Assembly: GCA_032027125.1 (NCBI GenBank)
Contig: JAVSMQ010000001.1
Span: forward strand, 2,886,778 to 2,950,777
Origin: Candidatus Kapaibacterium sp.
Lineage (GTDB): Bacteria; Bacteroidota; Ignavibacteria; Kapaibacteriales; UBA2268
Direction: 5' to 3'
Length of the DNA stretch: 64,000 nucleotides
How positions within the stretch are numbered: position 1 is the first letter of the stretch; every line of letters starts with the position of its first letter. This document shows, piece by piece, positions 1 to 17,213 of this stretch. Under the pieces are notes generated by a model that did not search any database, had not been told where the DNA came from, and was given only the letters and a program-made list of their open reading frames with translations. A program made the position numbers and the translations under genes.

Positions 1-536
1 GCTGTTATCATTATTTTCGGGAAGCCATCAGTGTAATTGATATTGGAGGTCAGGATAATAAAATTATAAAACTTGATGGCGGTGGAAAACGAATAAATTT
101 TAAAATGAACAGAAAATGTGCTGCAGGTACAGGTGCATTTCTTGAAGAAATGGCGATGAGACTTGATGTACCATTGGAAGAGATGAACAGTCTTGCTGAA
201 AGTTCTACCGAAATGGTTAGAATAGGCAGTTTCTGCACTGTTTTTTCGGCTACCGAAGTTTTGGAAAACATCCGTATGGGTAAAAAAGTCTCTGATCTGG
301 CAAAGGGTTTGTTTTATTCGGTTATTAAGAGAGTTCTGGAAATGGATAAGCTTGAAGGGAAAGTAATAATGACCGGCGGAGTAGTTGCTTACAATCCTTT
401 GTTAGTTAAAATGACAAGTGAAGAGCTCGGAGAGGATGTTTTTGTTACACCATATCCGCAGCTTACAGGTGCAATAGGAGCGGCTTTATACGCATTGGAA
501 ACCGTAAATGAAAAGATAGAGGTAAATAATGGCTGA
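1..536 (+). CDS. BadF/BadG/BcrA/BcrD (HgdC-type) ATPase, 3' part; gene continues upstream of the window
   Basis: Frame is open from base 3; translation contains VIDIGGQDNKIIKL and MNRKCAAGTGAFLEEM, typical of the actin/sugar-kinase-fold activator ATPases of benzoyl-CoA reductase / 2-hydroxyacyl-CoA dehydratase; the ORF track lists only the part from the internal Met at 105. Confidence 0.8.
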   Translation, partial: CYHYFREAISVIDIGGQDNKIIKLDGGGKRINFKMNRKCAAGTGAFLEEMAMRLDVPLEEMNSLAESSTEMVRIGSFCTVFSATEVLENIRMGKKVSDLAKGLFYSVIKRVLEMDKLEGKVIMTGGVVAYNPLLVKMTSEELGEDVFVTPYPQLTGAIGAALYALETVNEKIEVNNG

Positions 537-1773
537 ACAAAATATTATAAAGAGAAAGAAAATTGCAGCTACCGAGCTTATGAACAGGTATATGGCAGAG
601 TATTTTCTTGAATTAGACAGATGTGCCAATACCGGCGAGAAAAAAGTTGCCTGGTGCACAAGTGTCGGACCTGCGGAACTTTTACATTCTCTGGGTTTTG
701 CAGTTCATTATCCTGAAAATCACGGTGCAATGCTTGGTGCTGCAAGGATGGCTTCAGACCTGATTCCATACGCAAATGCTCTGGGATATTCACCCGATAT
801 TTGTTCATATCTGACAGCCGATATTGGCTCTTATGTCACAAATAATACACCTCTGACAAAAGCTTTCGGTATTAAAAATGTACCCAAACCGGATGTGCTT
901 GTATTTGATACAAATCAATGCCGTGATGTGCAGGATTGGATGTCCTGGTATGCCCGTGAATTAAATGTACCGATTATGGGTGTTTATGCTCCCAAATACC
1001 CTGCTCAAATTACCGAAACACACGTCCGGTCTATGGCAAAGCAGACAGAAGATTTGGTCAAACCGCTGGAACAAATCTCCGGAAATAAATTCGATATAGA
1101 TAAACTAAGAGAAGTACTAAAGCTTTCGAGGGAATGTACCGAGTTATGGGGTCAAGTACTTCGTACTGCTGCGACATTGCCGTCACCGTTAACATTCTTT
1201 GACGGTACAATTCATATGGGTCCTGCAGTAGTACTCAGGGGAACGACTCAGGCGATTGATTATTACCGTGTACTGCTTAAAGAATTAGAAGATAGAGCCG
1301 CAAATGGTGAAGGTGCTGTCGAAAATGAAAAATTCCGTTTATATTGGGATGGTATGCCGATTTGGGGCAGGATAAGAGCACATTCGGAACTTTTTGGGGG
1401 GTTGGATACCTGCGTTCTTGCATCAACATACTGTAATAGCTGGATATTTTCAGCTTTTGATGAAACTGACCCCTTCCAAAGTATGGCAAGAGCTTATGCT
1501 GAAATATTTATTGTTCTGTCGGATGATTCAAAAGAAAAATATATCAAAAATATGCTTGAATTTTATCATATTGACGGAATTATTTATCACGATTCAAAAA
1601 CCTGCCCTGCTAACTCAAACTGCCGGTACGGTATGCACAAACGCATTGAAAATGCAACCGGAGTGCCAAGTCTTGTTATAAACGGCGACCTGAATGATAT
1701 GAGATTAGTATCTGACGAACAGACGAAAACAAATGTAGAAGCATTTATTGAACAGCTTGAGGAGAATAAATAA
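529..1773 (+). CDS. HgdA/HgdB/BcrB/BcrC-family subunit (benzoyl-CoA reductase or 2-hydroxyacyl-CoA dehydratase component)
   Basis: 414 aa; start overlaps the upstream ATPase stop by 8 nt (translational coupling); family-level resemblance (VAWCTSVGPAELL, Cys-containing motifs) to the D-component / Bcr B,C subunits; context with ATPase. Confidence 0.6.
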   Translation: MAEQNIIKRKKIAATELMNRYMAEYFLELDRCANTGEKKVAWCTSVGPAELLHSLGFAVHYPENHGAMLGAARMASDLIPYANALGYSPDICSYLTADIGSYVTNNTPLTKAFGIKNVPKPDVLVFDTNQCRDVQDWMSWYARELNVPIMGVYAPKYPAQITETHVRSMAKQTEDLVKPLEQISGNKFDIDKLREVLKLSRECTELWGQVLRTAATLPSPLTFFDGTIHMGPAVVLRGTTQAIDYYRVLLKELEDRAANGEGAVENEKFRLYWDGMPIWGRIRAHSELFGGLDTCVLASTYCNSWIFSAFDETDPFQSMARAYAEIFIVLSDDSKEKYIKNMLEFYHIDGIIYHDSKTCPANSNCRYGMHKRIENATGVPSLVINGDLNDMRLVSDEQTKTNVEAFIEQLEENK

Positions 1774-1775
1774 TT

Positions 1776-3863
1776 ATGTTACATTCCTTATTTCACCCAA
1801 AATCAGTTGCTATTATAGGGGCATCTACAAAAGATTTGTCAATTGGAAATGTGATAACAAAAAATTTATTACATTATAAATTTAACGGTGCAATTTATCC
1901 CATTAATCCTTCTGCACCTGAAGTCCGCGGTGTAAAAGCCTATCCTTCAGTACTTGACTGTCCCGGTGATGTTGACCTTGTTCATATTTCAATTCCGAGT
2001 AAATTTGTCCCTGCCGCTATTGATGAATGCGGTAGAAAAGGTGTTAAGAATATCATTATTAACAGTGCAGGATTTAAAGAAATCGGTCCTATTGGAATTG
2101 CTCTCGAGAAAGAATCTATTGAAATTGCAAAAAAATACGGAATGAGGATTTTTGGTCCTAACTGTCAGGGAATTATAAATACTCATCCTGACTACAAGGC
2201 GTACTGCGATTTCACCTTTACATATCCAAAACCCGGCAATATCTCCATTGTTGCTCAAAGCGGCGGAGTCGGCGCTGTACTGATGCAGCGTTTTTATGAC
2301 CTTGATATCGGATTGCGGTTCTATGCATCCAATGGTAATGCCTGCGATGTTTCAATACCTGAAATTATTGAGTATTACGGAAATGATGAAGAAACAAAAG
2401 TAATTGTTCTATATGTAGAGGCATTTGCAAATCCGCTCGAATTTTTGGAAACAGCCCGCAAAGTTACAGCAAAAAAACCAATTCTTGCTATGCGTTCAGG
2501 CAGAACAGAGCAGGGTGCAAAAGCATCAATGTCGCATACCGGCGGGCTTGCCGGAGCCGGACTCTCAACCGAATTAATATTTAAGAAAACCGGTATTGTG
2601 ACTTTTCGAGATGAAGAGGAAATGTGTCAGGCAGCTATTGCTTTTTCTTTGCAGCCGATTCCAAAAAGTAACAGAGTCGGCATTATTACCGATACAGGAG
2701 GTCCTGCAATTATAGCAACAGACAGTCTTGTCGAAGGCGGTCTTGAAATGCCGGATTTAAGCGGCAACGCAAAATTGTTTTTAAAAGATAAATTATATGC
2801 CGAAGCATCTATTGCCAATCCTATTGATGTTTTGGCTACTGCGGCTGCAGTTCACTGGCGTGCAGCTATGGATGCTCTAATGGATGATGAGCAGATTGAC
2901 AGCATTTATATAAATTTCGTGACACCGCCCTTTGTAGATTGTGAAGCAGTTGCAAGGGAAATGGCTGAAATCAGTAATATGAGAAAAAAGCCCGTAATAT
3001 GCAATTATATGACAGATAAAGAGCCGTGGACTGCTACAACTGCCATATTGAAATCCGGTAATATACCTTGCTATGATTTCCCTGAGATGGCAGCAAAAGC
3101 ACTTTCCTCATTGGTTGGGTATCGTAATATATTAAACCGTAAAATTGAAGAACCGAGAATATTTCCTGATACTGATAAAGATATTGTTGTAGCGATAATT
3201 GAAAATTGTTACAATGAAAACAGATTGATTCTCAATTCCGGTGAAGTCTATTCAATTCTGAGAGCTTATGGAATTAATACAGTCCCGTGTGCATTGCTTT
3301 CAAATATTGATGATGTAGTTTCAGCATCTGAATCTATTGGATATCCACTCGTGCTCAAAGCTGATTCCCCAAAAATCATTCATAAAAGTGATACCGGCGG
3401 TGTTATTTTAAATCTGAAAAATTCTGATGAATTGAGAAAAGCCGCTGTTGAAATGGCTCGAAAATATGATGCGCACGATTTGAAATTCTTTATACAAAAG
3501 TATATTCCGGGAGGTAAAGAGATTATTATCGGTGCTGCTGCAGAACCTGGTCTCGGACATATTATAATGTTCGGACTTGGCGGCGTTCTGGTTGAACTGC
3601 TTAAAGATGTTTCTTTCTGTTTGACACCGGTTTCCCGACCCGAAGCATTAGAAATGACAGAGACAATCAAAACAGCACAGATTTTGAAAGGATATCGCGG
3701 CGACAAAGGTGTTGACATTCCTAAATTAATTGAAACAATTCAAAGGATTTCCCGGTTAGTTACAGAAAATCCTCAAATAGCTGAAATGGATTTAAATCCT
3801 GTTACGGCTTTTGAAAATGATGTTTTTGTTTTAGATGCCAGAATTAAATTACAAAATAAATAA
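1776..3863 (+). CDS. acyl-CoA synthetase (NDP/ADP-forming), fused alpha/beta (acetate--CoA ligase ADP-forming family)
   Basis: 695 aa; N-terminal CoA-binding domain KSVAIIGAS, succinyl-CoA-synthetase-like ligase domain, C-terminal ATP-grasp; starts 3 nt after the upstream stop. Confidence 0.8.
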   Translation: MLHSLFHPKSVAIIGASTKDLSIGNVITKNLLHYKFNGAIYPINPSAPEVRGVKAYPSVLDCPGDVDLVHISIPSKFVPAAIDECGRKGVKNIIINSAGFKEIGPIGIALEKESIEIAKKYGMRIFGPNCQGIINTHPDYKAYCDFTFTYPKPGNISIVAQSGGVGAVLMQRFYDLDIGLRFYASNGNACDVSIPEIIEYYGNDEETKVIVLYVEAFANPLEFLETARKVTAKKPILAMRSGRTEQGAKASMSHTGGLAGAGLSTELIFKKTGIVTFRDEEEMCQAAIAFSLQPIPKSNRVGIITDTGGPAIIATDSLVEGGLEMPDLSGNAKLFLKDKLYAEASIANPIDVLATAAAVHWRAAMDALMDDEQIDSIYINFVTPPFVDCEAVAREMAEISNMRKKPVICNYMTDKEPWTATTAILKSGNIPCYDFPEMAAKALSSLVGYRNILNRKIEEPRIFPDTDKDIVVAIIENCYNENRLILNSGEVYSILRAYGINTVPCALLSNIDDVVSASESIGYPLVLKADSPKIIHKSDTGGVILNLKNSDELRKAAVEMARKYDAHDLKFFIQKYIPGGKEIIIGAAAEPGLGHIIMFGLGGVLVELLKDVSFCLTPVSRPEALEMTETIKTAQILKGYRGDKGVDIPKLIETIQRISRLVTENPQIAEMDLNPVTAFENDVFVLDARIKLQNK

Positions 3864-3875: not shown

Positions 3876-4844
3876 ATGGATACACAGAAATATAGAATAG
3901 GAATTGTAGGTTTGGGACCTGTCGGAATGATTCTTGCAGTACATTTCAAACAGGCAGGATGCAGAGTTGCCATTTGCGACTCTAATCACGATAAAATCGA
4001 ATTGATTAAAGAGCAGGGCATAAATTTATTCGGAGCATTAGATAAGTCTGCTTCATTTAAGGAAATTTATTATTCGCTTGATGACCTTTTAGACAGCAAG
4101 GTTGATTTACTCGTGAGTTGTGTGAAAACTTACCGTGTCAAAAGTATTATTGAAACAATAAAAAATCATAAATCTGATTTTCATTTACTTAGTGCTCAAA
4201 ATGGCATTGACATCGGGCAAAAGTATATAGAATGTGTTGATGAGTCAAAGATTTTACGGATGGTAATAAATTTTGCAGGGAATTATGCCGGTCTGAATGA
4301 AATTAAAGTGTCCTTTTCCAAACCGCCGCATTTGATAGCATCAATAAACGATATGTGCACTGATGTTGCTGAATGGATAGCATCAATTCTTACTTTTACA
4401 GATCAGGAAACGCGGGTAATTGATTCATTTTCAATTTTTGATGAAGTATGGAAAAAAACTATCTTAGTATCCTCAATCAGTCCTTTGTGCGGGATTTCAA
4501 AACTTACAATTAAGGAGGCTATGAAATCAAGCGACACAATCGAAGTCATTGAGCAGACACTTCTTGAATCAATGCAGGTTGCTAAAGCTGAAGGAATTAA
4601 ATTTGACGATAATTTTGTAAAAATTTGTCTTCGCGATTTGCGAAATACCGGTGACCATTTTCCATCACTCGGAGTTGATATTTTAAATGGCGGTGAAACT
4701 GAAATTGATTATAATAATGGAAAAATTGTTGATTACGGCAGAAAGCACTATATCCAGACACCCCTTAACCTGACATTTACTAATTTAGTAAATGCCGTAT
4801 CCAACAAGAATTTAGGAAAGATATTGAAAATCTATAAAATGTAA
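3876..4844 (+). CDS. 2-dehydropantoate 2-reductase (ApbA/PanE) family NAD(P)H-dependent 2-oxoacid reductase
   Basis: 322 aa; N-terminal Rossmann motif IGIVGLGPVGMILA; paralog of 5985..6950. Confidence 0.7.
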   Translation: MDTQKYRIGIVGLGPVGMILAVHFKQAGCRVAICDSNHDKIELIKEQGINLFGALDKSASFKEIYYSLDDLLDSKVDLLVSCVKTYRVKSIIETIKNHKSDFHLLSAQNGIDIGQKYIECVDESKILRMVINFAGNYAGLNEIKVSFSKPPHLIASINDMCTDVAEWIASILTFTDQETRVIDSFSIFDEVWKKTILVSSISPLCGISKLTIKEAMKSSDTIEVIEQTLLESMQVAKAEGIKFDDNFVKICLRDLRNTGDHFPSLGVDILNGGETEIDYNNGKIVDYGRKHYIQTPLNLTFTNLVNAVSNKNLGKILKIYKM

Positions 4845-4863
4845 TTTTTTATTAGGACGATAA

Positions 4864-5979
4864 ATGCCATTAGTGCCTGAACATATAAATAATCTACGAC
4901 CTTATGATCCGGGGAAACCTATGGAAGATGTTATGCGTGAATACAACCTGAAATATGTTGTAAAGCTGGCATCAAACGAAAATCCGCTCGGTGTTTCTCC
5001 CCACGCAATTCAGGCAATGATTGCTTCACTTTATCAGATAAATCGTTATCCTGATATTTCCAGCAAAATCCTGTGTGAAAAGCTGGCAGAAGTTTACAAT
5101 CTTGATGTTGGAAATATTATTACCGGACACGGTTCTGAAGCTATTATGAGTGTTATAGTCAGAACATATCTTTGTGCCGGAGATGAAGTTTTGACATCGG
5201 AAGGTACTTTTGTCGGATTCTATGTAATTGCGAATGCCTGGGGAATTAAACCAATTACTGTTCCTTTGAAAGACTACCGTTTTGATTTGGAAGCAATAGC
5301 TGACGCCATTACACATAAAACCAAAATTATTTATCTTGTAAATCCTAACAATCCAACCGGCAATATTTTTACAAAAATTGAGTTCGACAAATTTATTGAA
5401 CGAGTACCATCATCGGTTATGATAATTCTGGATGAGGCATATCACGAGTTTGTTCAGGGCAGACCTGATTACCCGGACTCTATGGATTACAGACTGAATA
5501 ATATTATTACACTCAGGACTTTCTCAAAGGCTTATGGATTAGCCGGAATAAGGTTAGGCTACGGATTTGGGCATAATGGAGTAATAAAAAATCTAATGAA
5601 AGTGAGACTTCCGTTTGAACCGGGAATACCTTCGCAGATGGCAGGTGTTACTGCATTGAACGATCACCAGTTTCTTGAATACTATCTGGAATTGAATCAG
5701 ATTGGGCTTAAATATTTATACAGTGTATTTGAACGATTCGGAATCAGATATATTAAGTCTGAAGCAAACTTTGTTATGTGTGTTATGGATTCCGCAGCAA
5801 CAGTGGATAATATCATATTCAGGCTGCTTACAAAAGGTGTGATAATCAGAGGACTTAAAGCGTTCGGTCTTCCGCACTGCCTTAGAGTCAGCGTTGGATT
5901 GCAGAAGGAAAATGAATTTTTCGCAGAAAAACTCGAAGAAGTGTTAAATGAAATCAATTTTGAAAGAAAGGTAGTATAA
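4864..5979 (+). CDS. class-II PLP aminotransferase, histidinol-phosphate/aromatic aminotransferase (HisC) family
   Basis: 371 aa; LASNENPLGVSP motif near the N-terminus; PLP-lysine region FSKAYGLAGIRLGY. Confidence 0.75.
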   Translation: MPLVPEHINNLRPYDPGKPMEDVMREYNLKYVVKLASNENPLGVSPHAIQAMIASLYQINRYPDISSKILCEKLAEVYNLDVGNIITGHGSEAIMSVIVRTYLCAGDEVLTSEGTFVGFYVIANAWGIKPITVPLKDYRFDLEAIADAITHKTKIIYLVNPNNPTGNIFTKIEFDKFIERVPSSVMIILDEAYHEFVQGRPDYPDSMDYRLNNIITLRTFSKAYGLAGIRLGYGFGHNGVIKNLMKVRLPFEPGIPSQMAGVTALNDHQFLEYYLELNQIGLKYLYSVFERFGIRYIKSEANFVMCVMDSAATVDNIIFRLLTKGVIIRGLKAFGLPHCLRVSVGLQKENEFFAEKLEEVLNEINFERKVV

Positions 5980-5984
5980 TAAAA

Positions 5985-6950
5985 ATGACTATGGACCCAA
6001 GAAAATATAAAATTGGAATTGTAGGATTAGGACCGGTTGGTCTTATTCTGGCACAACATCTTCACAGCGCCGGATGCAATCTTGCGGTTTGTGATGTAAT
6101 TCAGGAAAAAGTTGATATTATAAGGGCTGAGGGCATTATTTTAACCGGGGTAATTGAAAAAAACGCCCAACTAAATGAAGTCTATGATTCTCTCGGCGAA
6201 CTTCTTCAGAGCAATATTAACATATTAATTTGTGCTGCTAAGGCTTATCACGTTGATAAAATTTTAGACCAGATTGAAGCTTATCATAATGAGAATTTGC
6301 TTATTTTAAGTGCCCAAAACGGTATCGGGGTTGCCCTAAAGTACAGAACTCATTTCCGCGAGTCGAGGATATTCAGAATGGTTGTAAATTTTGCCGGAAA
6401 TATGAATTCACTTAACGGTGTAAATGTAACATTCTTCAATCCGCCGAATTGGATTGCATCAAGGGATGATTCAAGAAGAGATGTAGCAGACTGGATTTCA
6501 AAATTACTTACTTCAGTTGACTTAATAACAGAAAGTACGGATTCTTTCGATATAACTGCAAAAGTCTGGCATAAGACTATATTAAATGCAGCACTCAGCC
6601 CTTTATGTGCGATTTCAAAACTTACAATGCGGGAGGCAATGACAATTCCGGACACTCACGAAATTGTCGAAAAAATTATTATTGAAGCCATTGAAGTTGC
6701 AAAAGCTGAGGATATAACTTTTGAAAAGAATTTTGTTAAACTTTGTTTGAGATATCTTAACAATGCCGGAGACCATTTCCCATCATTGGCTGTGGACCTT
6801 ATAAATAAGCGGGAAACAGAAATTGATTTTATGAATGGAAAGATTGTTGAATACGGCAGAAAACATTATATCCGAACACCATTGAACCTAACATTTACAA
6901 ATCTTGTTCGGGCGATTACAGACAAAAATTTCGGAAGACCTTTTAAATAA
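5985..6950 (+). CDS. ApbA/PanE-family 2-oxoacid reductase (paralog of 3876..4844)
   Basis: 321 aa; IGIVGLGPVGLILA; collinear similarity with the upstream paralog over the whole length. Confidence 0.7.
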   Translation: MTMDPRKYKIGIVGLGPVGLILAQHLHSAGCNLAVCDVIQEKVDIIRAEGIILTGVIEKNAQLNEVYDSLGELLQSNINILICAAKAYHVDKILDQIEAYHNENLLILSAQNGIGVALKYRTHFRESRIFRMVVNFAGNMNSLNGVNVTFFNPPNWIASRDDSRRDVADWISKLLTSVDLITESTDSFDITAKVWHKTILNAALSPLCAISKLTMREAMTIPDTHEIVEKIIIEAIEVAKAEDITFEKNFVKLCLRYLNNAGDHFPSLAVDLINKRETEIDFMNGKIVEYGRKHYIRTPLNLTFTNLVRAITDKNFGRPFK

Positions 6951-6975
6951 TATTATCAGCAAAATTTTCAAAGTT

Positions 6976-7605
6976 ATGAGCAAAACTCAATATAATGATA
7001 CATCGGTTGGAGCAGTTATTCTTGCGTCAGGATTTTCGAGCAGGATGAAGCAGCAGAAACCATTTTTGAGGTTTGATGATAATAAATTATTTATAAATAA
7101 AATTATTGAAAATTTCATAGAATTTGGTTGTGATAAAATTATAGTAACGTTCAATGAAGGTGTTTCACAATGGAATGAATTCATCAGCCAATTTGACAAT
7201 AATCCTTCAATACAATTTGCATCAAATAAGCATCCTGAATATGAAAGATTTTATTCCATTAAAACCGGTTTGGAGTATATCGGGAATCCGGATTACTGCT
7301 TTATCCAGAATGTAGATAATCCATTCATTGATTATGATATTTTGAAAATAATTTACCTGAGCAGAACTGACAGCGGATATACAGTTCCAATTTATGAAGG
7401 AAAAGGGGGGCATCCGGTATTATTAAGCAAATGTGTCATTCAGCAAATTAAAGATGAAAATAATATTGATTTGAATTTAAAGGAATTTTTAACTCGTTTT
7501 GAAAGAATAAATGCAGAAGTAAATTCAGGCAAAATTCATATAAATATTAATACTCAGGAAGAGTATGATAAATTTTTCTTAAATAATAAGCAATTCTCAA
7601 GATGA
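6976..7605 (+). CDS. MobA-like NTP transferase (molybdenum cofactor cytidylyltransferase MocA-like)
   Basis: GAVILASGFSSRM N-terminal nucleotidyltransferase motif; start chosen at ATG 6976 (the longer ORF from 6904 would overlap the upstream gene by 47 nt); lies next to XdhC and XDH-family genes. Confidence 0.6.
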   Translation: MSKTQYNDTSVGAVILASGFSSRMKQQKPFLRFDDNKLFINKIIENFIEFGCDKIIVTFNEGVSQWNEFISQFDNNPSIQFASNKHPEYERFYSIKTGLEYIGNPDYCFIQNVDNPFIDYDILKIIYLSRTDSGYTVPIYEGKGGHPVLLSKCVIQQIKDENNIDLNLKEFLTRFERINAEVNSGKIHININTQEEYDKFFLNNKQFSR

Positions 7606-8363: not shown

Positions 8364-8534
8364 ATTATGAATGCTGAATGAGAAGAATGCTGAATTATGA
8401 ATGCTGAATGTGAAGAATGATGAATTCTGAATGCTGAATGCTGAATTATGAATGCTGAATGAGAAGAATGCTGAATGATGAATTCTGAATACTGAATGCT
8501 GAATGATGAATGATGAATGTGAAGAATGTTGAAC
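8346..8534. repeat. heptanucleotide tandem array (CTGAATG / ATGAATT variants, with occasional GAAGAATG 9-mers), ~25 units
   Basis: direct reading: ctgaatg ctgaatt atgaatg ctgaatg agaagaatg ...; contiguous, no spacers. Confidence 0.9.
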
Positions 8535-8558
8535 TAAAATATAATTGAGGAGAAATGA

Positions 8559-8912: not shown

Positions 8913-9018
8913 TGCTGAATGTGAAGAATTCTGAATGCTGAATTATGAATGCTGAATTATGAATGCTGAATGAGAAGAATGATGAATGAGAAGAATGATG
9001 AATGTTGAATTATGAATA
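8911..9018. repeat. heptanucleotide tandem array (same family), direct orientation
   Basis: aatgctgaatgtgaagaattctgaatgctgaattatgaatgctg... Confidence 0.9.
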
Positions 9019-9110
9019 AATATTTTGGGAGATTGATTGATGAAAAGAATTAGTTTTAAAAGTAATGATTGTAATGAATTATTAAACGTTTTGCTGAATT
9101 TTACAAACTA

Positions 9111-10086: not shown

Positions 10087-12897
10087 ATGAAACAGATAAT
10101 CAATATAAATGTAAACGGAACAGATTACGAAACTGCCATCAGAACCGGAGCAACTCTTCTTGATTTGCTCAGGGATGAATTGAAATTAACCGGAACAAAA
10201 CGCGGCTGTGACCACGGTGACTGCGGAGCCTGCACCGTGCTTTTGGATGGCAAAGCAGTCAATTCCTGTCTTGTTTTGGCTATAGAAGCAGATGGCAGAC
10301 GGGTTGAAACAATTGAGTCAGTTGCAAACGGTGAAGAACTTCATCCGATTCAAAGAGCCTTTATCGAGAAAGGAGCCATTCAGTGTGGATTTTGTACACC
10401 TGGTATGATAATGAGGGTTAAATCATTTCTGGATGAAAATCCTAATCCGACATTGAATGAAATTAAGCAGGAAATCAGCGGTAATCTGTGCAGATGTACA
10501 GGATATGTTAAAATATTTGAAGCAGTCGAAACCGCAGTTGAATATATGAATGGCAGAACTCCAAAAGAGATAGAATACCAGCCCCAGAAATCAGCGATGA
10601 ATTTATCGGTTGTCGGCAAAAGACTGCCTAAACTTGATGCACCCGATAAGGCTACGGGCAGGGCAATCTATACAGACGATATTTCATTTCCGAATATGCT
10701 GTATGGTAAAACTTTACTCAGCCCGCACCCTCACGCAAGAATCATATCTATAAATACAGAACGTGCAAAGGCATTGCCGGGTGTTAAATTAATACTTACC
10801 GGAGCTGATGTACCGGAATTAACTTATGGAACATCTCCGGCAAGATACGATGAAAATATTCTTGCCAAAGATAAAGTGCGGTTTGTAGGGGATGTTATTG
10901 CTGCAGTTGCTGCGATAGATGAAGAAACCTGTTACAAAGCTCTTAAATTAATTGATGTTGAATATGAATTACTACCTGCGGTTTTTGACCCGTTCGAAGC
11001 TATTCAGGATGGTGCCCCCCGGCTTTTTGATGACAAATATGAGAATAATATAAACACACACGTGGACCATCACTTCGGTGATATTGACCAAGGATTTGCT
11101 GAAGCAGATTATATCCGTGAAGAAAGATTTGTGGGTAACAGAACTTATCAAAATCCGCTAGAGCCTCATTGTGCTATTGCAGAATGGGACAGACACGGCA
11201 GAGTAACACTGCATACATCAACACAGGTTGTCCATTATGTTCATCATCAGTTATCAAGGATTTTAAATATTCCCCTTGGTGATATTCGGGTTATTATGAC
11301 CAATGTCGGCGGCGGATTTGGAGCAAAAGCCGCAACAAATATTCTCGAAGTTTTGTCAATTTTTCTTGCAAGAAAAACCGGACAGCCTGTTAAAATGCGA
11401 TTCACACGAGAAGAGATGTATCTATATGGCAGGGGCAGACATAAACAGTACATTGACCTAAAAATAGGTGTGAAAAATGACGGTCAGATTACGGCAGTAA
11501 AACAAAAAGTTATACTCGAAGGCGGAGCTTATTCAAGTTTCGGAGTTGTTACAACATATTATGCGGGTTCTATGCTCGCAACCCTATATAAATTTGCAAA
11601 TTACAAATATGACGGATATCGCGTAAATACAAATCTGCCTCCCTGCGGTGCATTTCGGGGACACGGCTGTCCTCATCCAAGATTTGCCTTTGAATCATTA
11701 CTGACAATGATAGCCGATGATATCAAAATGGATCCGATTGATATCAGACACAAAAATGCAATGGAACCTGATTATCATACCTGCAACGACCTTGATATTA
11801 ACTCCTGCGAATTGACTGCCTGTCTCGAAAGCGTCAGAGAAAAATCCGGCTGGAATGAAAAAAGAGGCAAATTGCCTTTTGGCAGAGGTATTGGTATTGG
11901 ATGCGGCGGTTTTGTTTCAGGTGCCGGATATCCAATCTACAGGTCACAATTTCCTCATTCCAATGCGATAATCAAAATTGCAGAAGACGGTTCAAAAGCT
12001 GTCCTGCTTATCGGCGATGCAGACATAGGACAAGGTTCGGATACCGTACTTGCACAAGCTGCAGCAGAAGCTATGGGTATTACTTTCGACAGAATCAGCG
12101 TTATTTCAGCCGACAGCGATATTACTCCTGTCGGATTCGGCGCTTATTCCAGCCGTGTTACATTGATGGGCGGTAATGCTTCAAAAATGGCAGGTGAAGA
12201 TATAAGAGAAAAATTACTCATAAAAGCATCGGAAATGATGGGAATTGAAAAAGATAAACTCGCTGTAAAAGAAAATAAAATATATGTTATTGATGAGCCG
12301 GAAAAGTTCCTTCAATGGGACAAAGTTGCAAATGAATATTTTTCTAAACAAGGACCCCTGATTGGTGCAGGGCACTATTCACCACCTGAAGGATTGGGAG
12401 GAACCTATAAAGGTGCTGCCGTAGGGACTTCCCCGGCATATTCATTTTCAGCCTCTGTTTGCGAAGTTGAAGTTGATGTCGAGACAGGGAAAGTTAAAGT
12501 TTTGAATTTCTGGGATGCACACGATTGCGGGACGGCTGTCAATCCACTGAATGTCGAAGGACAGGTTGACGGAGCAGCGGTTATGGGTATGAGTGAAACA
12601 TTATTTGAAAATCAGGTTTTTGACAATAACGGGCGTATGTTAAATCCCGATTTGCATAACTATCTGATTGCAACCAGCGCAGATACTCCTGAGATTCAAT
12701 CTGTAATCGTGGATAGTTACGAGCCGGCAGGTCCTTTCGGAGCCAAGGAAGTCGGTGAAGGTGCCTCCCTGCCGATTCTGGGAGCCATAGCAAATGCAAT
12801 TGAAGACGCAGTTGGTGTTAGGATTAAAGAATTGCCGATAACACCTGAAAAAATTCTCAAGGCGATTAGAGAAAGGCAAAGGAATTCTGAATGCTGA
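10087..12897 (+). CDS. xanthine dehydrogenase / aldehyde oxidase-family molybdoenzyme, fused [2Fe-2S] small subunit + molybdopterin-binding large subunit
   Basis: 936 aa; N-terminus has the GCDHGDCGACTV...CGFCTPGM...CRCTGY 2Fe-2S motifs, followed by the Ald_Xan_dh large-subunit domains; the stop lies inside a heptamer repeat. Confidence 0.85.
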   Translation: MKQIININVNGTDYETAIRTGATLLDLLRDELKLTGTKRGCDHGDCGACTVLLDGKAVNSCLVLAIEADGRRVETIESVANGEELHPIQRAFIEKGAIQCGFCTPGMIMRVKSFLDENPNPTLNEIKQEISGNLCRCTGYVKIFEAVETAVEYMNGRTPKEIEYQPQKSAMNLSVVGKRLPKLDAPDKATGRAIYTDDISFPNMLYGKTLLSPHPHARIISINTERAKALPGVKLILTGADVPELTYGTSPARYDENILAKDKVRFVGDVIAAVAAIDEETCYKALKLIDVEYELLPAVFDPFEAIQDGAPRLFDDKYENNINTHVDHHFGDIDQGFAEADYIREERFVGNRTYQNPLEPHCAIAEWDRHGRVTLHTSTQVVHYVHHQLSRILNIPLGDIRVIMTNVGGGFGAKAATNILEVLSIFLARKTGQPVKMRFTREEMYLYGRGRHKQYIDLKIGVKNDGQITAVKQKVILEGGAYSSFGVVTTYYAGSMLATLYKFANYKYDGYRVNTNLPPCGAFRGHGCPHPRFAFESLLTMIADDIKMDPIDIRHKNAMEPDYHTCNDLDINSCELTACLESVREKSGWNEKRGKLPFGRGIGIGCGGFVSGAGYPIYRSQFPHSNAIIKIAEDGSKAVLLIGDADIGQGSDTVLAQAAAEAMGITFDRISVISADSDITPVGFGAYSSRVTLMGGNASKMAGEDIREKLLIKASEMMGIEKDKLAVKENKIYVIDEPEKFLQWDKVANEYFSKQGPLIGAGHYSPPEGLGGTYKGAAVGTSPAYSFSASVCEVEVDVETGKVKVLNFWDAHDCGTAVNPLNVEGQVDGAAVMGMSETLFENQVFDNNGRMLNPDLHNYLIATSADTPEIQSVIVDSYEPAGPFGAKEVGEGASLPILGAIANAIEDAVGVRIKELPITPEKILKAIRERQRNSEC

Positions 12898-13001: not shown

Positions 13002-14072
13002 TTGGAGAAAAATATGACTGATAAAATTTATCAATGGCAAATGAAGGAATTAAAAATGCCATTTGAACTTGTTGAATCAAATGTTCCGAAGATTAATGAT
13101 ACTGAAGTTTTGGTTAAGATAGCCGGCTGCGGTGTCTGCCATACCGATTTGAGTTTTTGGCACTTTGGAGTACCTACAAAACAAGAACTGCCACTAACAT
13201 TAGGTCACGAAATTTCAGGTGAAGTAGTTATCGGACCTGCAGAATGGCTTGGGAAAAAAGTAATTATTCCGGCTGTTCTGCCTTGCGGCGAATGTGAGCT
13301 TTGTAAAAGAGGAAGAGGAAATATGTGCCAGAAACAACTGATGCCCGGAAATGATTTCCACGGCGGATTTTCTTCGCATATCAAAGTTCCTTACAAAAAT
13401 CTGTGTGTTGTTCCTGATAAAGCTCTTGAAATATATTCTCTCGAGCAATTGGCGGTTATTGCTGATGCTGTAACAACTCCTTATCAGGTTTTGAAGAAAT
13501 CCGAACTTGAACCCGGAGATTTTGTAATTTGTATCGGTGCAGGCGGTGTTGGCATTTACGGTGCATTGCTTGCAAAAATTATGGGCGGCAGGGTTCTTTC
13601 GATTGATATTGATGACACAAAATTAAATATAGCAAAAGAAAATGGCATTGATGCTGTTTTAAATATCAAAGATTTGAATATCAAAGAAATTAAAGACAAA
13701 GTTAAAGATATAGCCAAGGAACTCGGAGTTTCCCGTTATATGTGGAAAATTTTAGAAATGTCCGGTACTAAAGCCGGTCAGGAATTGGGCTTCGCTTTAC
13801 TGAATTTTGCAGGCACATTGTCTGTTGTAGGTTTTACTCTTGAAAAGTTGGAATTAAGATTAAGTAATCTTATGGCTTTTGATGCTAAAATAATCGGTAC
13901 CTGGGGATGTAAACCGGAATTATATCCTGAAGTTGTTGAGATGGTTTCTTCCGGAAAATTGAATATTTCTCCTTTTGTACAAACTTTTCCAATGTCTCAA
14001 ATAAACGAGGTGTTCAGTAATACACTTGCACATAAATATACAAAGCGTTCTGTAATGGTTGCAGATTTTTAA
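13002..14072 (+). CDS. Zn-dependent medium-chain alcohol dehydrogenase; candidate 6-hydroxycyclohex-1-ene-1-carbonyl-CoA dehydrogenase (Had)
   Basis: 356 aa; GCGVCHTDL...GHEISGEV catalytic-zinc motif, structural-zinc Cys cluster CGECELCKRG...C, and GAGGVG Rossmann; the Had assignment rests only on context next to the oah and dch candidates. Confidence 0.75.
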   Translation: MEKNMTDKIYQWQMKELKMPFELVESNVPKINDTEVLVKIAGCGVCHTDLSFWHFGVPTKQELPLTLGHEISGEVVIGPAEWLGKKVIIPAVLPCGECELCKRGRGNMCQKQLMPGNDFHGGFSSHIKVPYKNLCVVPDKALEIYSLEQLAVIADAVTTPYQVLKKSELEPGDFVICIGAGGVGIYGALLAKIMGGRVLSIDIDDTKLNIAKENGIDAVLNIKDLNIKEIKDKVKDIAKELGVSRYMWKILEMSGTKAGQELGFALLNFAGTLSVVGFTLEKLELRLSNLMAFDAKIIGTWGCKPELYPEVVEMVSSGKLNISPFVQTFPMSQINEVFSNTLAHKYTKRSVMVADF

Positions 14073-14105: not shown

Positions 14106-15191
14106 ATGTTAGTATCACACAATCTTGTTGATAATATAGTTTTTGATGATGTACTGTATGATTTAAAGCCTTGTCTTGATAATTCGGGAAATCCGGTTGA
14201 AGGGATTTATAATGCCTGGATTACACTTAATAATCCAACCCAGTTCAATTCTTATACAACCGGTATGGTGAAGAAAGTTATACTGGCTATGCGTCAGGCA
14301 TCAAATGACAGACGTGTTTCTTCAGTAATTTTTACCGCAGCAGGCGACAAAGCATTTTGTACCGGCGGTAATGTTAAGGAATATGCGGAATATTACGCAT
14401 CTAATCCTCAGGAATACAAACAGTATATGCGGTTATTCAATGATATGGTTTCGTCAATTCTTATGAACGACAAGCCTGTTATTTGCAGAGTTAACGGAAT
14501 GAGAATCGGCGGAGGACAGGAAATCGGTATGGCTTGTGATTTTAGTATAGCTCAGGATTTTGCAAGATTCGGTCAGGCAGGACCGAAGCACGGAAGCGCT
14601 CCTGATGGAGGCTCGACAGATTTTCTGCCATTATTTGTCGGAATTGAAAATGCTATGTACTCATGTACTGCGTGTGACCCATGGTCTGCTCACGAAGCAT
14701 TACGTTACGGACTTTTGACCGAAGTCACTCCATCTTTGAAAGTTAACGGAGAATTTGTACCCAATCCTATGGTATATGTTGATAAATGGGTTGATGGATC
14801 CGGTAATATAGTATATGGAAAAATGAAATCAGGCGACGATTTGACAAATGCTAAAGCTCTTGTAAAATCAGGTGAAATTGATTTGGCTCTTCTTGATAAA
14901 GCTGTTGAAAAACTTGCTACCAAACTAATGCTATTGATGCCAAACTGCCTTAGCAAAACATTGAATTCACTGCGTAAACACAAACTTGCTCATTGGGATA
15001 TGAACAAGGAAAGTAACCGCGACTGGCTTGCTCTTAATATGATGACCGAGGCAAAAGCAGGTTTCCGTGCTTTCAATGACGGTCCGAAAGATAACCGTGA
15101 ATGTGATTTTATCCTTTTGAGACAATTACTCGCCCAGGGTCATGAATGGAACGATGAACTAATAAAGAAAATTTCTCCTCAAAGTATTTAA
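14106..15191 (+). CDS. bamA: 6-oxocyclohex-1-ene-1-carbonyl-CoA hydrolase (Oah/BamA), crotonase superfamily
   Basis: 361 aa, an unusually long crotonase; contains QFNSYTTGMV, GQEIGMACDF and FGQAGPKHG, which correspond to the conserved peptides targeted by published oah/bamA primers as I recall them (QYNSYTTxMV, QEIGM, FGQAGPKHG); the crotonase oxyanion motif AAGDKAFCTGGN. Confidence 0.7.
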   Translation: MLVSHNLVDNIVFDDVLYDLKPCLDNSGNPVEGIYNAWITLNNPTQFNSYTTGMVKKVILAMRQASNDRRVSSVIFTAAGDKAFCTGGNVKEYAEYYASNPQEYKQYMRLFNDMVSSILMNDKPVICRVNGMRIGGGQEIGMACDFSIAQDFARFGQAGPKHGSAPDGGSTDFLPLFVGIENAMYSCTACDPWSAHEALRYGLLTEVTPSLKVNGEFVPNPMVYVDKWVDGSGNIVYGKMKSGDDLTNAKALVKSGEIDLALLDKAVEKLATKLMLLMPNCLSKTLNSLRKHKLAHWDMNKESNRDWLALNMMTEAKAGFRAFNDGPKDNRECDFILLRQLLAQGHEWNDELIKKISPQSI

Positions 15192-15204: not shown

Positions 15205-15978
15205 ATGAATAAAATTCAATTGAATTATACTCACGATGGCGCTGTAGCTCAAATCATATTAAACGACGGCAGGGGAAATGTACTTGATGCCGCTATGATG
15301 AGCGAACTCCACGACGTATTTGGACATCTAAAAAATAATAATGACATAAAGCTTATTACTTTTGAAGGTGCCGGAAAGCATTTTTCTTATGGTGCAAGTG
15401 TCGAAGAACATACGAAAAGTAATTGTGCAGAGATGCTTAAATCCTTTCACAGGCTTTTTTATGAAATAATTGAAATGTCAATACCGACAATGGCAAAAAT
15501 TTCAGGTCAGTGTCTCGGAGGTGGTTTGGAACTCGCTCTTGCCTGCAATTTTCTCTTTGCCGACAAATCAGCATTTATGGGCCAGCCGGAAATTATGCTT
15601 GGCGTTTTTGCTCCTCCCGCCTCATTGATGCTGCCATTGAAAATCGGGCTGGCACATGCGGAAGAATTACTTTTAACAGGAATCAGTTTTGACGCTTCAA
15701 GAGCAAAGGATATGGGATTATTGAATGATGTATTTGAAGATAAGGAAGAAATGGAGTCAGCTTTAGATATCTGGATAACTAAAAATATCTGTAAAAAAAG
15801 TGCATCATCGCTGAAATATGCCGTTAGAGCCGGAAGAAAGATTTTCAATGAAACAATTCTTTCACAATTGCCTGAATTAGAGAAAATTTATATCGGACAA
15901 TTGATGGAAACCTTTGATGCAAATGAAGGCATTAATTCATTCATTGAGAAAAGAAAACCCGATTGGAAGAATTGCTGA
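15205..15978 (+). CDS. enoyl-CoA hydratase (crotonase); candidate cyclohexa-1,5-diene-1-carbonyl-CoA hydratase (Dch)
   Basis: 257 aa; typical crotonase length; FEGAGKHFSYGASVEEH; directly downstream of the oah candidate. Confidence 0.7.
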   Translation: MNKIQLNYTHDGAVAQIILNDGRGNVLDAAMMSELHDVFGHLKNNNDIKLITFEGAGKHFSYGASVEEHTKSNCAEMLKSFHRLFYEIIEMSIPTMAKISGQCLGGGLELALACNFLFADKSAFMGQPEIMLGVFAPPASLMLPLKIGLAHAEELLLTGISFDASRAKDMGLLNDVFEDKEEMESALDIWITKNICKKSASSLKYAVRAGRKIFNETILSQLPELEKIYIGQLMETFDANEGINSFIEKRKPDWKNC

Positions 15979-16052
15979 TTATTTATTTTGATTTACAATC
16001 AACAAAATCAACTCAAAATATATCTTTGAGTTGATTTTGTGTTTATAAATCC

Positions 16053-17213
16053 TCACTCATAAGCAGCAATGCCGGTGATTGCCTGTCCAAGAATGAGTGT
16101 ATGAATATCGTGAGTTCCTTCATAAGTACGGACTGATTCAAGATTAGCTGAATGACGCATCACAGGATACTCGTTTAGTATGCCGTTTGCACCATGAATA
16201 TCACGAGAAATTCGGGCGCACTGAAGAGCTATGTCAACATTATTTCGTTTTGCAAATGAAACCTGCTGGGGAGTTGCCTTGTGAGCATCCATCAAAGCAG
16301 CTAATCTGTGGTTTACAAGCTGGGCTTTTGTGATTTCAGTAAGCATCCAGACTAATTTTTCTTGTACAAGCTGAAATGATGCAATTGGCTTGCCGAATTG
16401 AATTCTTGACTTTGCATAATTCACAGCCGATTCATAGACAGCAATTGCAGCACCGACAGCACCCCAGGCTATGCCGTATCTTGCTTGAGTCAGACAACTC
16501 AATGGTCCTTTTATGCCTTTAATATTTAAAATATTCTGTTCAGGGATTTCGCAGTCCTGAAATATTAATTCCGATGTAACTGACGCCCTTAGAGAATGTT
16601 TTCCCTTCATAATGGGTGCAGTAAAACCCGGAGTTCCTTTTTCGACGATAAAACCGCGAATCTCTCCGTCCAACTTTGCCCATACTACCGCAACATCGGC
16701 AACAGTTCCGTTTGTAATCCACATTTTAGCACCATTGAGCAAATATCCGCCGGATGTCTTTTTAGCATTAGTAATCATTCCGCTTGGATTTGAACCGAAA
16801 TCCGGCTCGGTAAGTCCGAAGCAGCCGATTGCCTTTGCTGCAGCAAGTTTGGGAAGCCAGAATTTTTTCAGTTCTTCATCTGCATATTTAAAAATTGGGT
16901 ACATAACAAGGGAACTCTGCACCGAAGCGAATGACCTTACAGCAGAATCACCCCGTTCGAGTTCGAGCATTGCCAAACCATACATCAGATAGCTTGAGCC
17001 GGCACCGCCGTACTCTTCAGGAATTGTAATTCCGAAAACTCCAAGGTCTGCAAGTTTGGATGTGATTTCTGCAGGATATGTCCCGTCAAGGAAATGCTGC
17101 TCTATAACAGGTAAAACTTCATTATCAACAAACTCTCTCAATGTATCGGTAAATAATATTTCTTCTTCTGTAAGAAGCTCGTTGATATTATAAAAATCTG
17201 TTATATTTAACAT
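16053..17213 (-). CDS. gcdH: glutaryl-CoA dehydrogenase (acyl-CoA dehydrogenase family)
   Basis: 386 aa; C-terminus TYEGTHDIHTLILGQAITGIAAYE matches the GCDH-specific signature (TYEGTHDIHALILGRAITG); LTEPDFGSNPSGM region. Confidence 0.8.
   Translation of the reverse strand: MLNITDFYNINELLTEEEILFTDTLREFVDNEVLPVIEQHFLDGTYPAEITSKLADLGVFGITIPEEYGGAGSSYLMYGLAMLELERGDSAVRSFASVQSSLVMYPIFKYADEELKKFWLPKLAAAKAIGCFGLTEPDFGSNPSGMITNAKKTSGGYLLNGAKMWITNGTVADVAVVWAKLDGEIRGFIVEKGTPGFTAPIMKGKHSLRASVTSELIFQDCEIPEQNILNIKGIKGPLSCLTQARYGIAWGAVGAAIAVYESAVNYAKSRIQFGKPIASFQLVQEKLVWMLTEITKAQLVNHRLAALMDAHKATPQQVSFAKRNNVDIALQCARISRDIHGANGILNEYPVMRHSANLESVRTYEGTHDIHTLILGQAITGIAAYE

Follow-up and report, generated by a model that had tools for sequence, protein, structure and literature searches.

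The 64,000-nucleotide stretch of Candidatus Kapaibacterium sp. analyzed here (assembly GCA_032027125.1, contig JAVSMQ010000001.1, positions 2,886,778 to 2,950,777; hereafter the window) carries in its first 17,213 bases a run of genes that belong to, or surround, the anaerobic benzoyl-CoA pathway of aromatic degradation. The run begins with an ATP-dependent activase gene cut by the window start and a gene of the 2-hydroxyacyl-CoA dehydratase (HGD-D) family, continues with an acyl-CoA synthetase, two reductases around an aminotransferase, and a molybdenum enzyme with its maturation genes, and ends with three ring-cleavage genes and a convergent glutaryl-CoA dehydrogenase gene. The open reading frames (ORFs) listed with the original prediction, an earlier model-made reading of the sequence, were confirmed at their positions, which lie on the forward strand unless marked (-). 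Bit scores refer to the NCBIfam curated equivalog models with their cut-offs, to Pfam domains and to PDB sequences.

The 361-residue product of 14106..15191 is the ring-opening 6-oxocyclohex-1-ene-1-carbonyl-CoA hydrolase (Oah/BamA). It scores 572 bits with the Oah model TIGR03200 (cut-off 464), with BadI, the next NCBIfam family, at 112 bits, and its Pfam match to the ECH_2 domain of the 3-hydroxyisobutyryl-CoA hydrolase (HIBCH) type is only partial; NCBI likewise names the product Oah (MDT3740184.1). The peptides QFNSYTTGMV, GQEIGMA and FGQAGPKHG are found at residues 46, 137 and 155, respectively. The sequences taken here for the bamA primers SP9/ASP1, whose use the literature confirms, have 3 mismatches at 14241 and 2 at 14515 and would yield an amplicon of ∼292 bp. 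The gene before oah, at 13002..14072, encodes Had (TIGR03201, 442 bits, cut-off 339), and the gene after it, at 15205..15978, a 257-residue Dch-like crotonase, the probable cyclohexa-1,5-diene-1-carbonyl-CoA hydratase. For the latter the Dch model TIGR03189 is the best family at 231 bits, under its cut-off of 292.5, with the next family at 150 bits; the protein is 41% identical to a Dch from a related locus (L155) that does pass (430 bits), and the order Had-Oah-Dch, including the position of Dch after Oah, is kept in related loci. The convergent gene at 16053..17213(-), whose product has the peptide TYEGTHDIHTLILGQAITG at residue 363, encodes a decarboxylating-type glutaryl-CoA dehydrogenase (GcdH). 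Its best PDB matches are decarboxylating enzymes (2eba, 426 bits; 3d6b, 385 bits; human 1siq, 371 bits), as against 252 bits for the next protein of another kind, ∼230 bits for generic acyl-CoA dehydrogenases and 187 bits for the non-decarboxylating Desulfococcus enzyme (3mpi). It passed no NCBIfam cut-off, the set having no curated model for decarboxylating enzymes. Its highest-ranking NCBIfam names, both sub-threshold, are a non-decarboxylating Acd and an acryloyl-CoA reductase, which were rejected on the PDB ranking.

Chance cannot account for three or more matches at curated equivalog level within a single co-linear cluster. The original prediction had quoted these peptides, read 14106..15191 as Oah and not as HIBCH or a generic crotonase, placed Had and Dch on either side of it with a convergent glutaryl-CoA dehydrogenase, and concluded that a bacterium equipped with a type IX secretion system (T9SS) carries the central anaerobic benzoyl-CoA route. 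All of this was borne out, for a bacterium of the Fibrobacteres-Chlorobi-Bacteroidetes (FCB) group, save that the Dch assignment holds at the level of best family only. Predicted sigma-70 promoters (60 versus 64 in shuffled sequence) and intrinsic terminators (13 versus 11.6) were not enriched over bases 1-17800, a result uninformative on operons; the scan does not cover the promoters of Bacteroidota.

The sequence preceding the window was read from NCBI contig JARXNP010000111.1 (GCA_029980345.1; locus L001), which is identical to the window at 600/600 overlapping bases. The 9.5 kb before base 1 contain, in order, genes for a thiolase (-), a FabG-like short-chain dehydrogenase/reductase (SDR), BzdN, BzdO, a BzdP-like ATPase subunit and BzdQ, followed by a 2x[4Fe-4S] ferredoxin, an 840-residue NAD(P)H/Fe-S oxidoreductase, a 76-residue ORF and the window-cut activase. 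BzdN (497 bits, cut-off 454), BzdO (684, 449) and BzdQ (449, 380) all pass their models and lie 4-8 kb upstream of the window on the same contig, the fourth subunit is of the BcrAD type and BzdP-like, and reductase, ferredoxin and oxidoreductase genes together span 1-8 kb upstream. Judged by these matches, the set is a complete Bzd-type, ATP-dependent class I benzoyl-CoA reductase (BCR). The 840-residue protein (L001 6441..9215, together with the 76-residue ORF) combines 2Fe-2S, NuoG-like 4Fe-4S and GltD-like FAD/NAD(P)H domains, and the small ORF that follows it has no Pfam match. The pair is kept in seven of the related loci (L006, L007, L045, L057, L091 and L096-L097), and another (L101) has the 840-residue gene without the 76-residue ORF; the two proteins are candidates for a ferredoxin-reducing system that would serve the reductase. 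Ignavibacteria-type loci (L007, at 4220..9024, and L021, L039, L065, L081 and L094) carry a second, divergent four-gene BCR-like set directly 5' of the activase and HGD-D genes. Its two HGD-D proteins share 25-27% identity with BzdN and with the HGD-D protein of the window, and its two ATPase subunits include a BcrA-like one of 475 residues; the set may encode an aryl-CoA reductase of the Bcr/Mbd type that acts on another substrate.

The activase at 3..536 is represented in the window by the C-terminal 177 of its 266 residues and belongs to the BcrAD_BadFG family with the HgdC-HadI-type [4Fe-4S] activases. It scores 148 bits as a fragment, and 216 bits as the full L001 protein (9208-10008), with TIGR00241 (cut-off 125), and far under the cut-offs of the BcrA, BcrD and BzdQ models. 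Its stop codon overlaps the start of the gene at 529..1773, which encodes a lone alpha-type HGD-D protein of 414 residues (PF06050, 218 bits), hereafter HGD414. The closest solved structure is the alpha subunit HadB (3o3m_A, 183 bits over residues 13-414), followed by MbdO (123 bits) and BzdO (82 bits); among NCBIfam models, none of which is passed, HadB (229 bits, cut-off 750) precedes BcrB (160, 487) and BzdO (83, 449). Three cluster cysteines in the motifs DICSY, NQCRD and KTCP align with cysteines of HadB and MbdO, and the protein is 23% identical to both BzdO and BzdN of its own genome. A double-cubane-cluster protein was considered and rejected (64 bits in NCBIfam against a cut-off of 350; 28 bits to 6eno and 7yyl).

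Orthologues of HGD414, 63-88% identical over about 100 loci, occur each time as a single HGD-D gene beside an activase gene, and a second (beta) HGD-D gene was found next to it neither in the window nor in these loci. The cluster has no CoA-transferase (CoA_trans) gene; an ADP-forming acyl-CoA synthetase gene follows the dehydratase gene instead. On this profile evidence the activase is the partner of HGD414 and no BCR subunit, and HGD414 is proposed to be an aryl-lactyl-CoA (2-hydroxyacyl-CoA) dehydratase without a beta-subunit gene. Bacteroidales-type loci (L025, L030, L034, L036, L041, L059, L061 and L082) have an HGD414 paralogue of ∼50% identity directly after Dch, with an activase of its own (34-40% identity); a lone alpha-type HGD-D protein with its activase is thus, in two paralogous forms, a near-constant companion of FCB benzoyl-CoA genes.

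The acyl-CoA synthetase (ACS; 1776..3863) starts 2 nucleotides past the HGD-D stop codon. It is a fused alpha-beta, ADP-forming (NDP-forming) protein of 695 residues with CoA_binding, Succ_CoA_lig and ATP-grasp_5 domains; its best NCBIfam models are ADP-forming ligases, none of them passed, and it is proposed to be a 2-hydroxyacid (aryl-lactate)-CoA ligase that would replace the usual CoA-transferase. Two PanE/ApbA-family NAD(P)H-dependent 2-oxoacid reductases, 54% identical to each other, follow. Paralogue 1 (3876..4844; 322 residues; ApbA, ApbA_C) is confined to the closest relatives (L008, L010, L022, L038 and L091). Paralogue 2 (5985..6950; 321 residues; TIGR00745, 149 bits, cut-off 141), whose nearest solved structures are ketopantoate-reductase-family enzymes, is kept beside the HGD-D/ACS pair in related loci and is proposed to be an arylpyruvate reductase. 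Between the two paralogues, in a position shared by 8 of the 79 loci anchored on the molybdenum enzyme, lies a HisC-family class II aminotransferase gene (4864..5979; 371 residues; TIGR01141 hisC, 302 bits, cut-off 277), for which a role as aromatic amino acid:2-oxoglutarate aminotransferase is proposed, the substrate being deduced. The original prediction had passed over the ACS, the PanE-like reductases and the aminotransferase, as well as MocA, XdhC and the molybdenum enzyme described below.

A metagenome scan with the 414-residue protein returned 80 loci at 63-81% identity and with a GC content from 31% to 69%. The activase is present in 60, ACS in 57 and a PanE-like gene in 38; ACS stands directly 3' of the HGD-D gene in 57/80 loci, and in 20 of the 23 with at least 5 kb of flank. 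PanE, activase, HGD414 and ACS form a self-contained kept unit, including on metagenome contigs, those of Aminicenantes among them, where no reductase is encoded in the vicinity. The unit was seen in five contexts. The first is the FCB arrangement of the window, near Bzd genes. In the second it forms part of the series IORa-IORb-Had-Dch-Act-HGD-ACS-thiolase-ECH-HCDH-..-ACT-PanE, in which IOR is indolepyruvate:ferredoxin oxidoreductase, ECH enoyl-CoA hydratase and HCDH 3-hydroxyacyl-CoA dehydrogenase; IOR alpha (704 bits, cut-off 651), Had (585, 339) and Dch (430, 292.5) all pass here. In the third, ACT-PanE-activase-HGD-ACS stands alone, in the fourth the module is divergent from Acd-thiolase-HCDH-ECH, and in the fifth it adjoins Oah and a BamB-like protein of the aldehyde:ferredoxin oxidoreductase family. 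A 146-residue gene recurring in the metagenome loci encodes an ACT-domain pair protein. Overall, 9 of the 23 loci with at least 5 kb on each side have an aromatic-pathway neighbor.

Downstream of the reductases lie genes for a molybdenum enzyme and its maturation. A MocA-like molybdenum cofactor cytidylyltransferase (6976..7605; NTP_transf_3; TIGR03310, 92 bits, cut-off 186; 209 residues as called in L001), assigned to synthesis of the molybdopterin cytosine dinucleotide (MCD) cofactor, is followed by an XdhC-family cofactor insertion chaperone (7602..8363; XdhC_CoxI, XdhC_C; TIGR02964, 148 bits, cut-off 162). A 23S_rRNA_IVP four-helix-bundle protein (8559..8912; PF05635, 104 bits) is encoded between xdhC and the FAD-subunit gene; it is missing from this place in most related loci, has homologues between ferredoxin and 840-residue oxidoreductase in one locus (L097) and in another (L084), and is probably a mobile-like passenger outside the pathway.

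The enzyme itself, belonging to the family of xanthine oxidase (XO), is encoded by two genes. The second (10087..12897) specifies a 936-residue fusion of a 2x[2Fe-2S] gamma domain with a molybdopterin alpha part, closest to HcrC and HcrA, respectively. Its alpha part scores 950 bits with the alpha model of 4-hydroxybenzoyl-CoA reductase (4-HBCR; TIGR03194, cut-off 994.5), with XdhA next at 577 bits, and 594 bits with Thauera HcrA (1rm6_A), with the next structure at 346 bits. The gamma part (Fer2, Fer2_2) reaches 184 bits with the 4-HBCR gamma model TIGR03193 (cut-off 258), a score similar to those with the XdhC and glyceraldehyde-dehydrogenase-gamma models. The first gene (9183..10079) encodes a 298-residue FAD subunit (FAD_binding_5, CO_deh_flav_C) that resembles XdhB and nicotinate dehydrogenase subunits, with 241 bits for the XdhB model versus 104 for the 4-HBCR beta model (TIGR03195, cut-off 405). 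It aligns over its full length with loop-less FAD subunits of 278-296 residues and with 1rm6_B over residues 2-121 alone (49 bits). By its length, by this break-off in the profile and PDB alignments and by the published statement that the extra [4Fe-4S] loop is a feature of 4-HBCR (PMC11760930), the subunit is predicted to be without the loop of Thauera HcrB. Both Cys116 and Cys121 recur without exception in 69/69 orthologues, and none of the solved XO-family FAD subunits has a cysteine at this site. The Cys-x4-Cys pair lies within GGNxCTxxSC, often with a third cysteine after it, near the point where the Thauera HcrB alignment breaks off; candidate roles are a redox-active disulfide, a metal site and a remnant of the Fe-S loop. 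The enzyme, to which NCBI gives a generic name, is proposed to be a 4-HBCR-like aryl-CoA para-dehydroxylase.

A genome scan with the molybdenum enzyme (HCR) returned orthologues, 68-92% identical, at 79 loci, which belong to Ignavibacteria, Bacteroidales, Lentimicrobiaceae, Prolixibacteraceae, Kapabacteria, KSB1, Gemmatimonadota and Acidobacteriota. Where at least 8 kb is available on each side (32 loci), Had, Oah or Dch is present in 16 and an HGD414-like gene in 13. Two bins labeled 'uncultured Hyphomicrobiales bacterium' (L008 and L022) carry the FCB-type cluster, with HCR identities of 92% and 78%, and these labels are probably wrong. In Gemmatimonadota (L048, L050, L054-L056 and L069) and Acidobacteriota (L043, L049 and L077), pairs of FAD-subunit and HCR genes 72-75% identical to those of the window have no benzoyl-CoA genes within 10 kb, which suggests horizontal spread of the molybdenum enzyme or a use beyond the benzoyl-CoA cluster.

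Collectively, bases 1-17213 probably form the downstream two-thirds of a ∼27-kb catabolic supercluster that would convert aromatic compounds to benzoyl-CoA, and degrade them further, under anoxia, with a feeder module for amino acids. BzdNOPQ would reduce benzoyl-CoA to the dienoyl-CoA, with the ferredoxin encoded alongside as low-potential donor; Had, Oah and the Dch-like hydratase would take the dienoyl-CoA to 3-hydroxypimeloyl-CoA, and the decarboxylating GcdH would serve the lower pathway. Such pairing of an ATP-dependent reductase with a GcdH of the decarboxylating type is the configuration of facultative anaerobes (Azoarcus/Aromatoleum). The molybdenum enzyme, matured by MocA and XdhC, would strip the para-hydroxyl group from 4-hydroxybenzoyl-CoA, its electrons entering via FAD, unlike the [4Fe-4S] loop route of Thauera. 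Genes 3-6950 would constitute the feeder module, in which the HisC-type aminotransferase converts Phe or Tyr to the arylpyruvate, a PanE-like reductase yields (R)-aryl-lactate, and the ADP-forming synthetase forms aryl-lactyl-CoA at the expense of one ATP. The activase, ATP-dependent and delivering one low-potential electron, would prime the lone HGD-D enzyme for a ketyl-radical dehydration to cinnamoyl- or 4-coumaroyl-CoA, from which one round of beta-oxidation by a hydratase and the upstream SDR and thiolase could release acetyl-CoA and benzoyl- or 4-hydroxybenzoyl-CoA. Side-chain shortening of this kind would be redox-neutral and need no respiratory alpha-oxidation.

More tentatively, the lone-alpha dehydratase, the ADP-forming ligase and the PanE reductase may represent a widespread redox-neutral route from Phe/Tyr to benzoyl-/4-hydroxybenzoyl-CoA and acetyl-CoA, operating in anaerobes of several phyla that have no alpha-oxidation by PadBCD/PadEFGHI and joined in the FCB group by the loop-less fused 4-HBCR variant. 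An aryl-lactate route is proposed because of the contexts of the module and of the gene clusters whose proteins Desulfococcus multivorans forms on phenylpyruvate and phenylacetate. The openly searchable literature, with subscription-only titles outside reach, gave one speculative scheme, for a benzene degrader, in which benzoyl-CoA is reached by way of aryl-lactate.

The core resembles the bzd cluster of Azoarcus sp. CIB and Aromatoleum, which we take to comprise bzdNOPQ, the ferredoxin gene bzdM, bzdV, bzdW/X/Y (dch/had/oah) and a decarboxylating GcdH. Shared features are the four-subunit ATP-dependent reductase, the adjoining ferredoxin, a large NAD(P)H/Fe-S oxidoreductase, Had, Oah, a Dch-like protein and the decarboxylating GcdH. 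Unlike bzd, the cluster belongs to a low-GC Kapabacteria/FCB host with a T9SS, has the order had-oah-dch, places ∼13 kb (the aryl-lactate-type module and the molybdenum enzyme with its maturation genes) between reductase and ring-cleavage genes, contains no benzoate-CoA ligase and has a Dch under the model cut-off.

The molybdenum enzyme shares with Thauera aromatica HcrCAB (PDB codes 1RM6/1SB3) its closest characterized alpha subunit, a 2x[2Fe-2S] gamma part, a FAD subunit and adjoining MCD-type maturation genes, but differs in the fusion of gamma with alpha, in the FAD subunit being encoded first and having Cys116/Cys121 in place of the extra [4Fe-4S] loop, and in missing all curated 4-HBCR cut-offs, narrowly or clearly. 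A FAD subunit without that loop is also found in UcdCFO, the XO-family urolithin C dehydroxylase of Enterocloster, in which electrons flow from FAD through 2x[2Fe-2S] to Mo and added NADH raised the activity of lysates (PMC11760930). UcdCFO, likened here to the molybdenum enzyme by description, acts on a free polyphenol instead of a CoA ester and has three separate subunits; it may nevertheless be taken as a precedent for a loop-less dehydroxylase.

HGD414 and its partners recall HadBC/HadI of Clostridioides difficile (3O3M) and the phenyllactate dehydratase FldABC/FldI of Clostridium sporogenes in the alpha-type HGD-D protein with three cluster cysteines, the HgdC/HadI-type activase and a 2-oxoacid reductase partner. 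In contrast to those systems, a beta-subunit gene is absent from about 100 HGD414 loci and HMMER gives just 183 bits to HadB, an ADP-forming synthetase replaces the class III CoA-transferase, the reductase is of the PanE/ApbA and not of the D-2-hydroxyacid-dehydrogenase family, and the context is oxidative (the benzoyl-CoA pathway) and not the reductive branch of a Stickland fermentation. The closest parallel in gene order, gene sizes and nearby beta-oxidation genes is Dmul_24850-24900 of Desulfococcus multivorans (PMC5109826, Table S1), where a 'putative phenylpyruvate reductase' of 319 residues corresponds in size and position to PanE paralogue 2. The authors read these genes as converting phenyllactate to phenylpyruvate, and reported growth on phenyllactate and proteins of two clusters with these genes that are formed specifically on phenylpyruvate and phenylacetate; they called the route to benzoyl-CoA unclear because padB and padEFGHI are absent (PMC5109826). 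D. multivorans differs from the host of the window in being a sulfate reducer whose reductase is of class II (Bam), and its cluster has AMP-forming ligases (FadD4) in place of the ADP-forming synthetase.

Several points weigh against the proposed scheme. Characterized 2-hydroxyacyl-CoA dehydratases are alpha-beta heterodimers, and to our knowledge no lone alpha subunit has ever been proven active; HGD414 is assumed to work as a homodimer. The substrate of its module is deduced from neighboring genes alone, 14 of the 23 well-flanked HGD414 loci have no aromatic-pathway gene within 10 kb, and some modules stand beside a glutaryl-CoA dehydrogenase and butyrate-type beta-oxidation genes, a setting that fits 2-hydroxyglutarate or aliphatic 2-hydroxyacids as well. 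Dmul_24850 is likened to HGD414 on the basis of gene order and sizes. Since its gene product passes the model for histidinol-phosphate aminotransferase, the aminotransferase gene could simply be hisC, and neither a dedicated side-chain enoyl-CoA hydratase nor an AMP-forming benzoate-CoA ligase is encoded in the window or the 10 kb upstream. The Dch candidate and all three parts of the molybdenum enzyme fall under their cut-offs; the FAD subunit lacks the [4Fe-4S] loop that is thought necessary for inverted electron flow, and all 79 HCR loci come from metagenome-assembled genomes (MAGs) or a single-amplified genome.

The original prediction had taken the activase (3-536) and HGD-D protein (529-1773) for two of the four BCR subunits, with the rest upstream. 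This is now very unlikely, even with both proteins in the BcrAD and HGD-D superfamilies common to reductases and dehydratases, BcrB second among the NCBIfam matches of HGD414 (160 bits), MbdO second in the PDB (123 bits) and BCR genes indeed lying upstream. That upstream set is not a remainder: BzdN, BzdO, a BzdP-like protein and BzdQ are already complete, three of them pass equivalog cut-offs, and ferredoxin, 840-residue oxidoreductase and 76-residue ORF separate them from the pair. HGD414 scores highest with HadB alpha, being only 23% identical to BzdO/BzdN; one HGD-D and one activase gene, not two of each, are present in the window and in orthologous loci, and the pair occurs with ACS and PanE in loci (L005, L088 and L089) that have no BCR genes within 10 kb. 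A different substrate for the module is also improbable, if less so. It might act on aliphatic 2-oxoacids (2-oxoisocaproate, 2-oxobutyrate) or on 2-oxoglutarate, which would pass through 2-hydroxyglutarate and 2-hydroxyglutaryl-CoA to glutaconyl-CoA, so that glutamate/2-oxoglutarate would join the lower pathway at glutaconyl/crotonyl-CoA, with GcdH decarboxylating glutaconyl-CoA. Consistent with such substrates, a glutaryl-CoA dehydrogenase often adjoins the module, as GcdH does in the window; an Acd (NF045552, 585-597 bits, cut-off 470) is divergent from it in two loci (L005 and L088), accompanied by thiolase, HCDH and ECH; the aliphatic 2-hydroxyisocaproyl-CoA dehydratase is the nearest solved structure; the ADP-forming ligase superfamily covers dicarboxylate and hydroxy acid enzymes; and the 14/23 loci without nearby aromatic genes count on the same side. 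Yet the module is repeatedly found in an operon with the indolepyruvate (arylpyruvate):ferredoxin oxidoreductase, the ACT protein, Had and Dch, the window module contains a HisC-type aminotransferase, D. multivorans has the same gene order in clusters whose proteins are formed on phenylpyruvate/phenylacetate, and genes for glutaconyl-CoA decarboxylase or glutaconate CoA-transferase were not seen. The links to IOR, the ACT protein and D. multivorans leave the 2-hydroxyglutarate reading as a minor one.

For the molybdenum enzyme, the alternative to 4-hydroxybenzoyl-CoA is that 9183-12897 encodes some other hydroxylase or dehydroxylase of the XO family, whose substrate is a different phenolic or N-heteroaromatic compound, for instance other hydroxyaryl-CoA esters or free phenolic acids. 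It is unlikely, though it carries the most weight of the alternative readings: the 4-HBCR models were all missed (950/994.5, 184/258 and 104/405), the loop-less FAD subunit is like those of XdhB and nicotinate dehydrogenase and the NCBI name is generic, the Gemmatimonadota and Acidobacteriota pairs have no benzoyl-CoA genes within 10 kb, and XO-family dehydroxylases for other substrates, such as UcdCFO, are known. What favors 4-hydroxybenzoyl-CoA is that HcrA is by far the nearest of the characterized subfamilies to the alpha part, and that the enzyme is encoded between the BCR and Had-Oah-Dch, genes that half of the well-flanked orthologous loci also carry. That the entire cluster is foreign to the organism, through chimeric binning or assembly or as a non-functional island acquired by recent transfer, is extremely improbable. 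The 72-92% identity of HCR orthologues in bins of Bacteroidota, Ignavibacteria, KSB1, Gemmatimonadota and Acidobacteriota suggests horizontal transfer, the two 'Hyphomicrobiales' labels are discordant, and the cluster has a slightly higher GC content (0.33-0.41) than much of the remaining window (0.29-0.39). Against this, the window and independent assemblies alike have the cluster on one contiguous sequence with T9SS cargo genes, the NCBI (208-kb and 4.5-Mb), JGI and Logan contigs are identical or nearly so over the compared parts, all ORFs are intact with tight, partly overlapping junctions, and synteny is kept in many FCB MAGs.

The T9SS cargo genes that the original prediction had reported beside the cluster were recovered downstream as four ORFs with a Por_Secre_tail sorting domain in Pfam (17727..19835(-), 20249..22315(-), 31817..32506 and 32516..33961), most of the length of each being without a Pfam match. 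The remainder of the window includes a protein in which a COX2 domain is joined to a cytochrome c domain (30529..31515) and a sulfide:quinone-reductase-like flavoprotein (34636..35871(-)), which hint at a respiratory, possibly microaerobic lifestyle that fits a pathway of the facultative-anaerobe type. The lowest GC content of the window (0.29) is found at 24001..27300, where Pfam gave no match for the ORFs 25276..25857 and 25977..27284. Genes at 39398..48222(-) and 57285..62049(+) encode a heavy-metal P-type ATPase and two efflux systems of the resistance-nodulation-division type (AcrB-type pumps); both efflux systems have OEP outer-membrane proteins, a HlyD-type adaptor was identified in the first alone, and they are unrelated to the aromatic cluster.

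The benzoyl-CoA pathway itself is textbook knowledge, and its presence in the FCB group is already visible in automatic annotation: NCBI and JGI call such proteins Oah in many MAGs of Bacteroidota, Ignavibacteria and Kapabacteria, and the pathway has been reported in a Melioribacter MAG, a Bacteroidota MAG and Krumholzibacteriota MAGs. To call it unexpected in Bacteroidota or Ignavibacteriota, as the original prediction did, is thus an overstatement. The Krumholzibacteriota paper found none in 37 representative FCB genomes, and the breadth seen here (79 species-level bins) has therefore been under-appreciated. What would set the present cluster apart is its combined architecture, the lone-alpha dehydratase with an ADP-forming ligase in place of a CoA-transferase, and a 4-HBCR-like enzyme that is fused and has no loop.

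If functional, the cluster would enable protein-degrading FCB bacteria with a T9SS to oxidize aromatic rings fully without oxygen, a capacity usually credited to Proteobacteria, Desulfobacterota and Firmicutes; such FCB bacteria (Kapabacteria, Ignavibacteria and Bacteroidales) abound in sediments, aquifers and bioreactors. With 2-3 mismatches to the primer sequences used here, FCB bamA genes may be under-counted in amplicon surveys. Two enzyme classes of unusual mechanism, the ketyl-radical dehydratases and the Mo-dependent, Birch-like dehydroxylases, would gain test cases in the dehydratase with its lone subunit and in the fused 4-HBCR variant without the loop. The aryl-lactate-type module offers a testable answer to how strict anaerobes that have no alpha-oxidation of phenylacetyl-CoA convert Phe/phenylpyruvate to benzoyl-CoA; if true, it would explain the open step in the degradation of Phe/phenylpyruvate by Desulfobacteraceae, and proteolytic Bacteroidota, Ignavibacteria and Kapabacteria would be complete mineralizers of aromatic amino acids in anoxic sediments.

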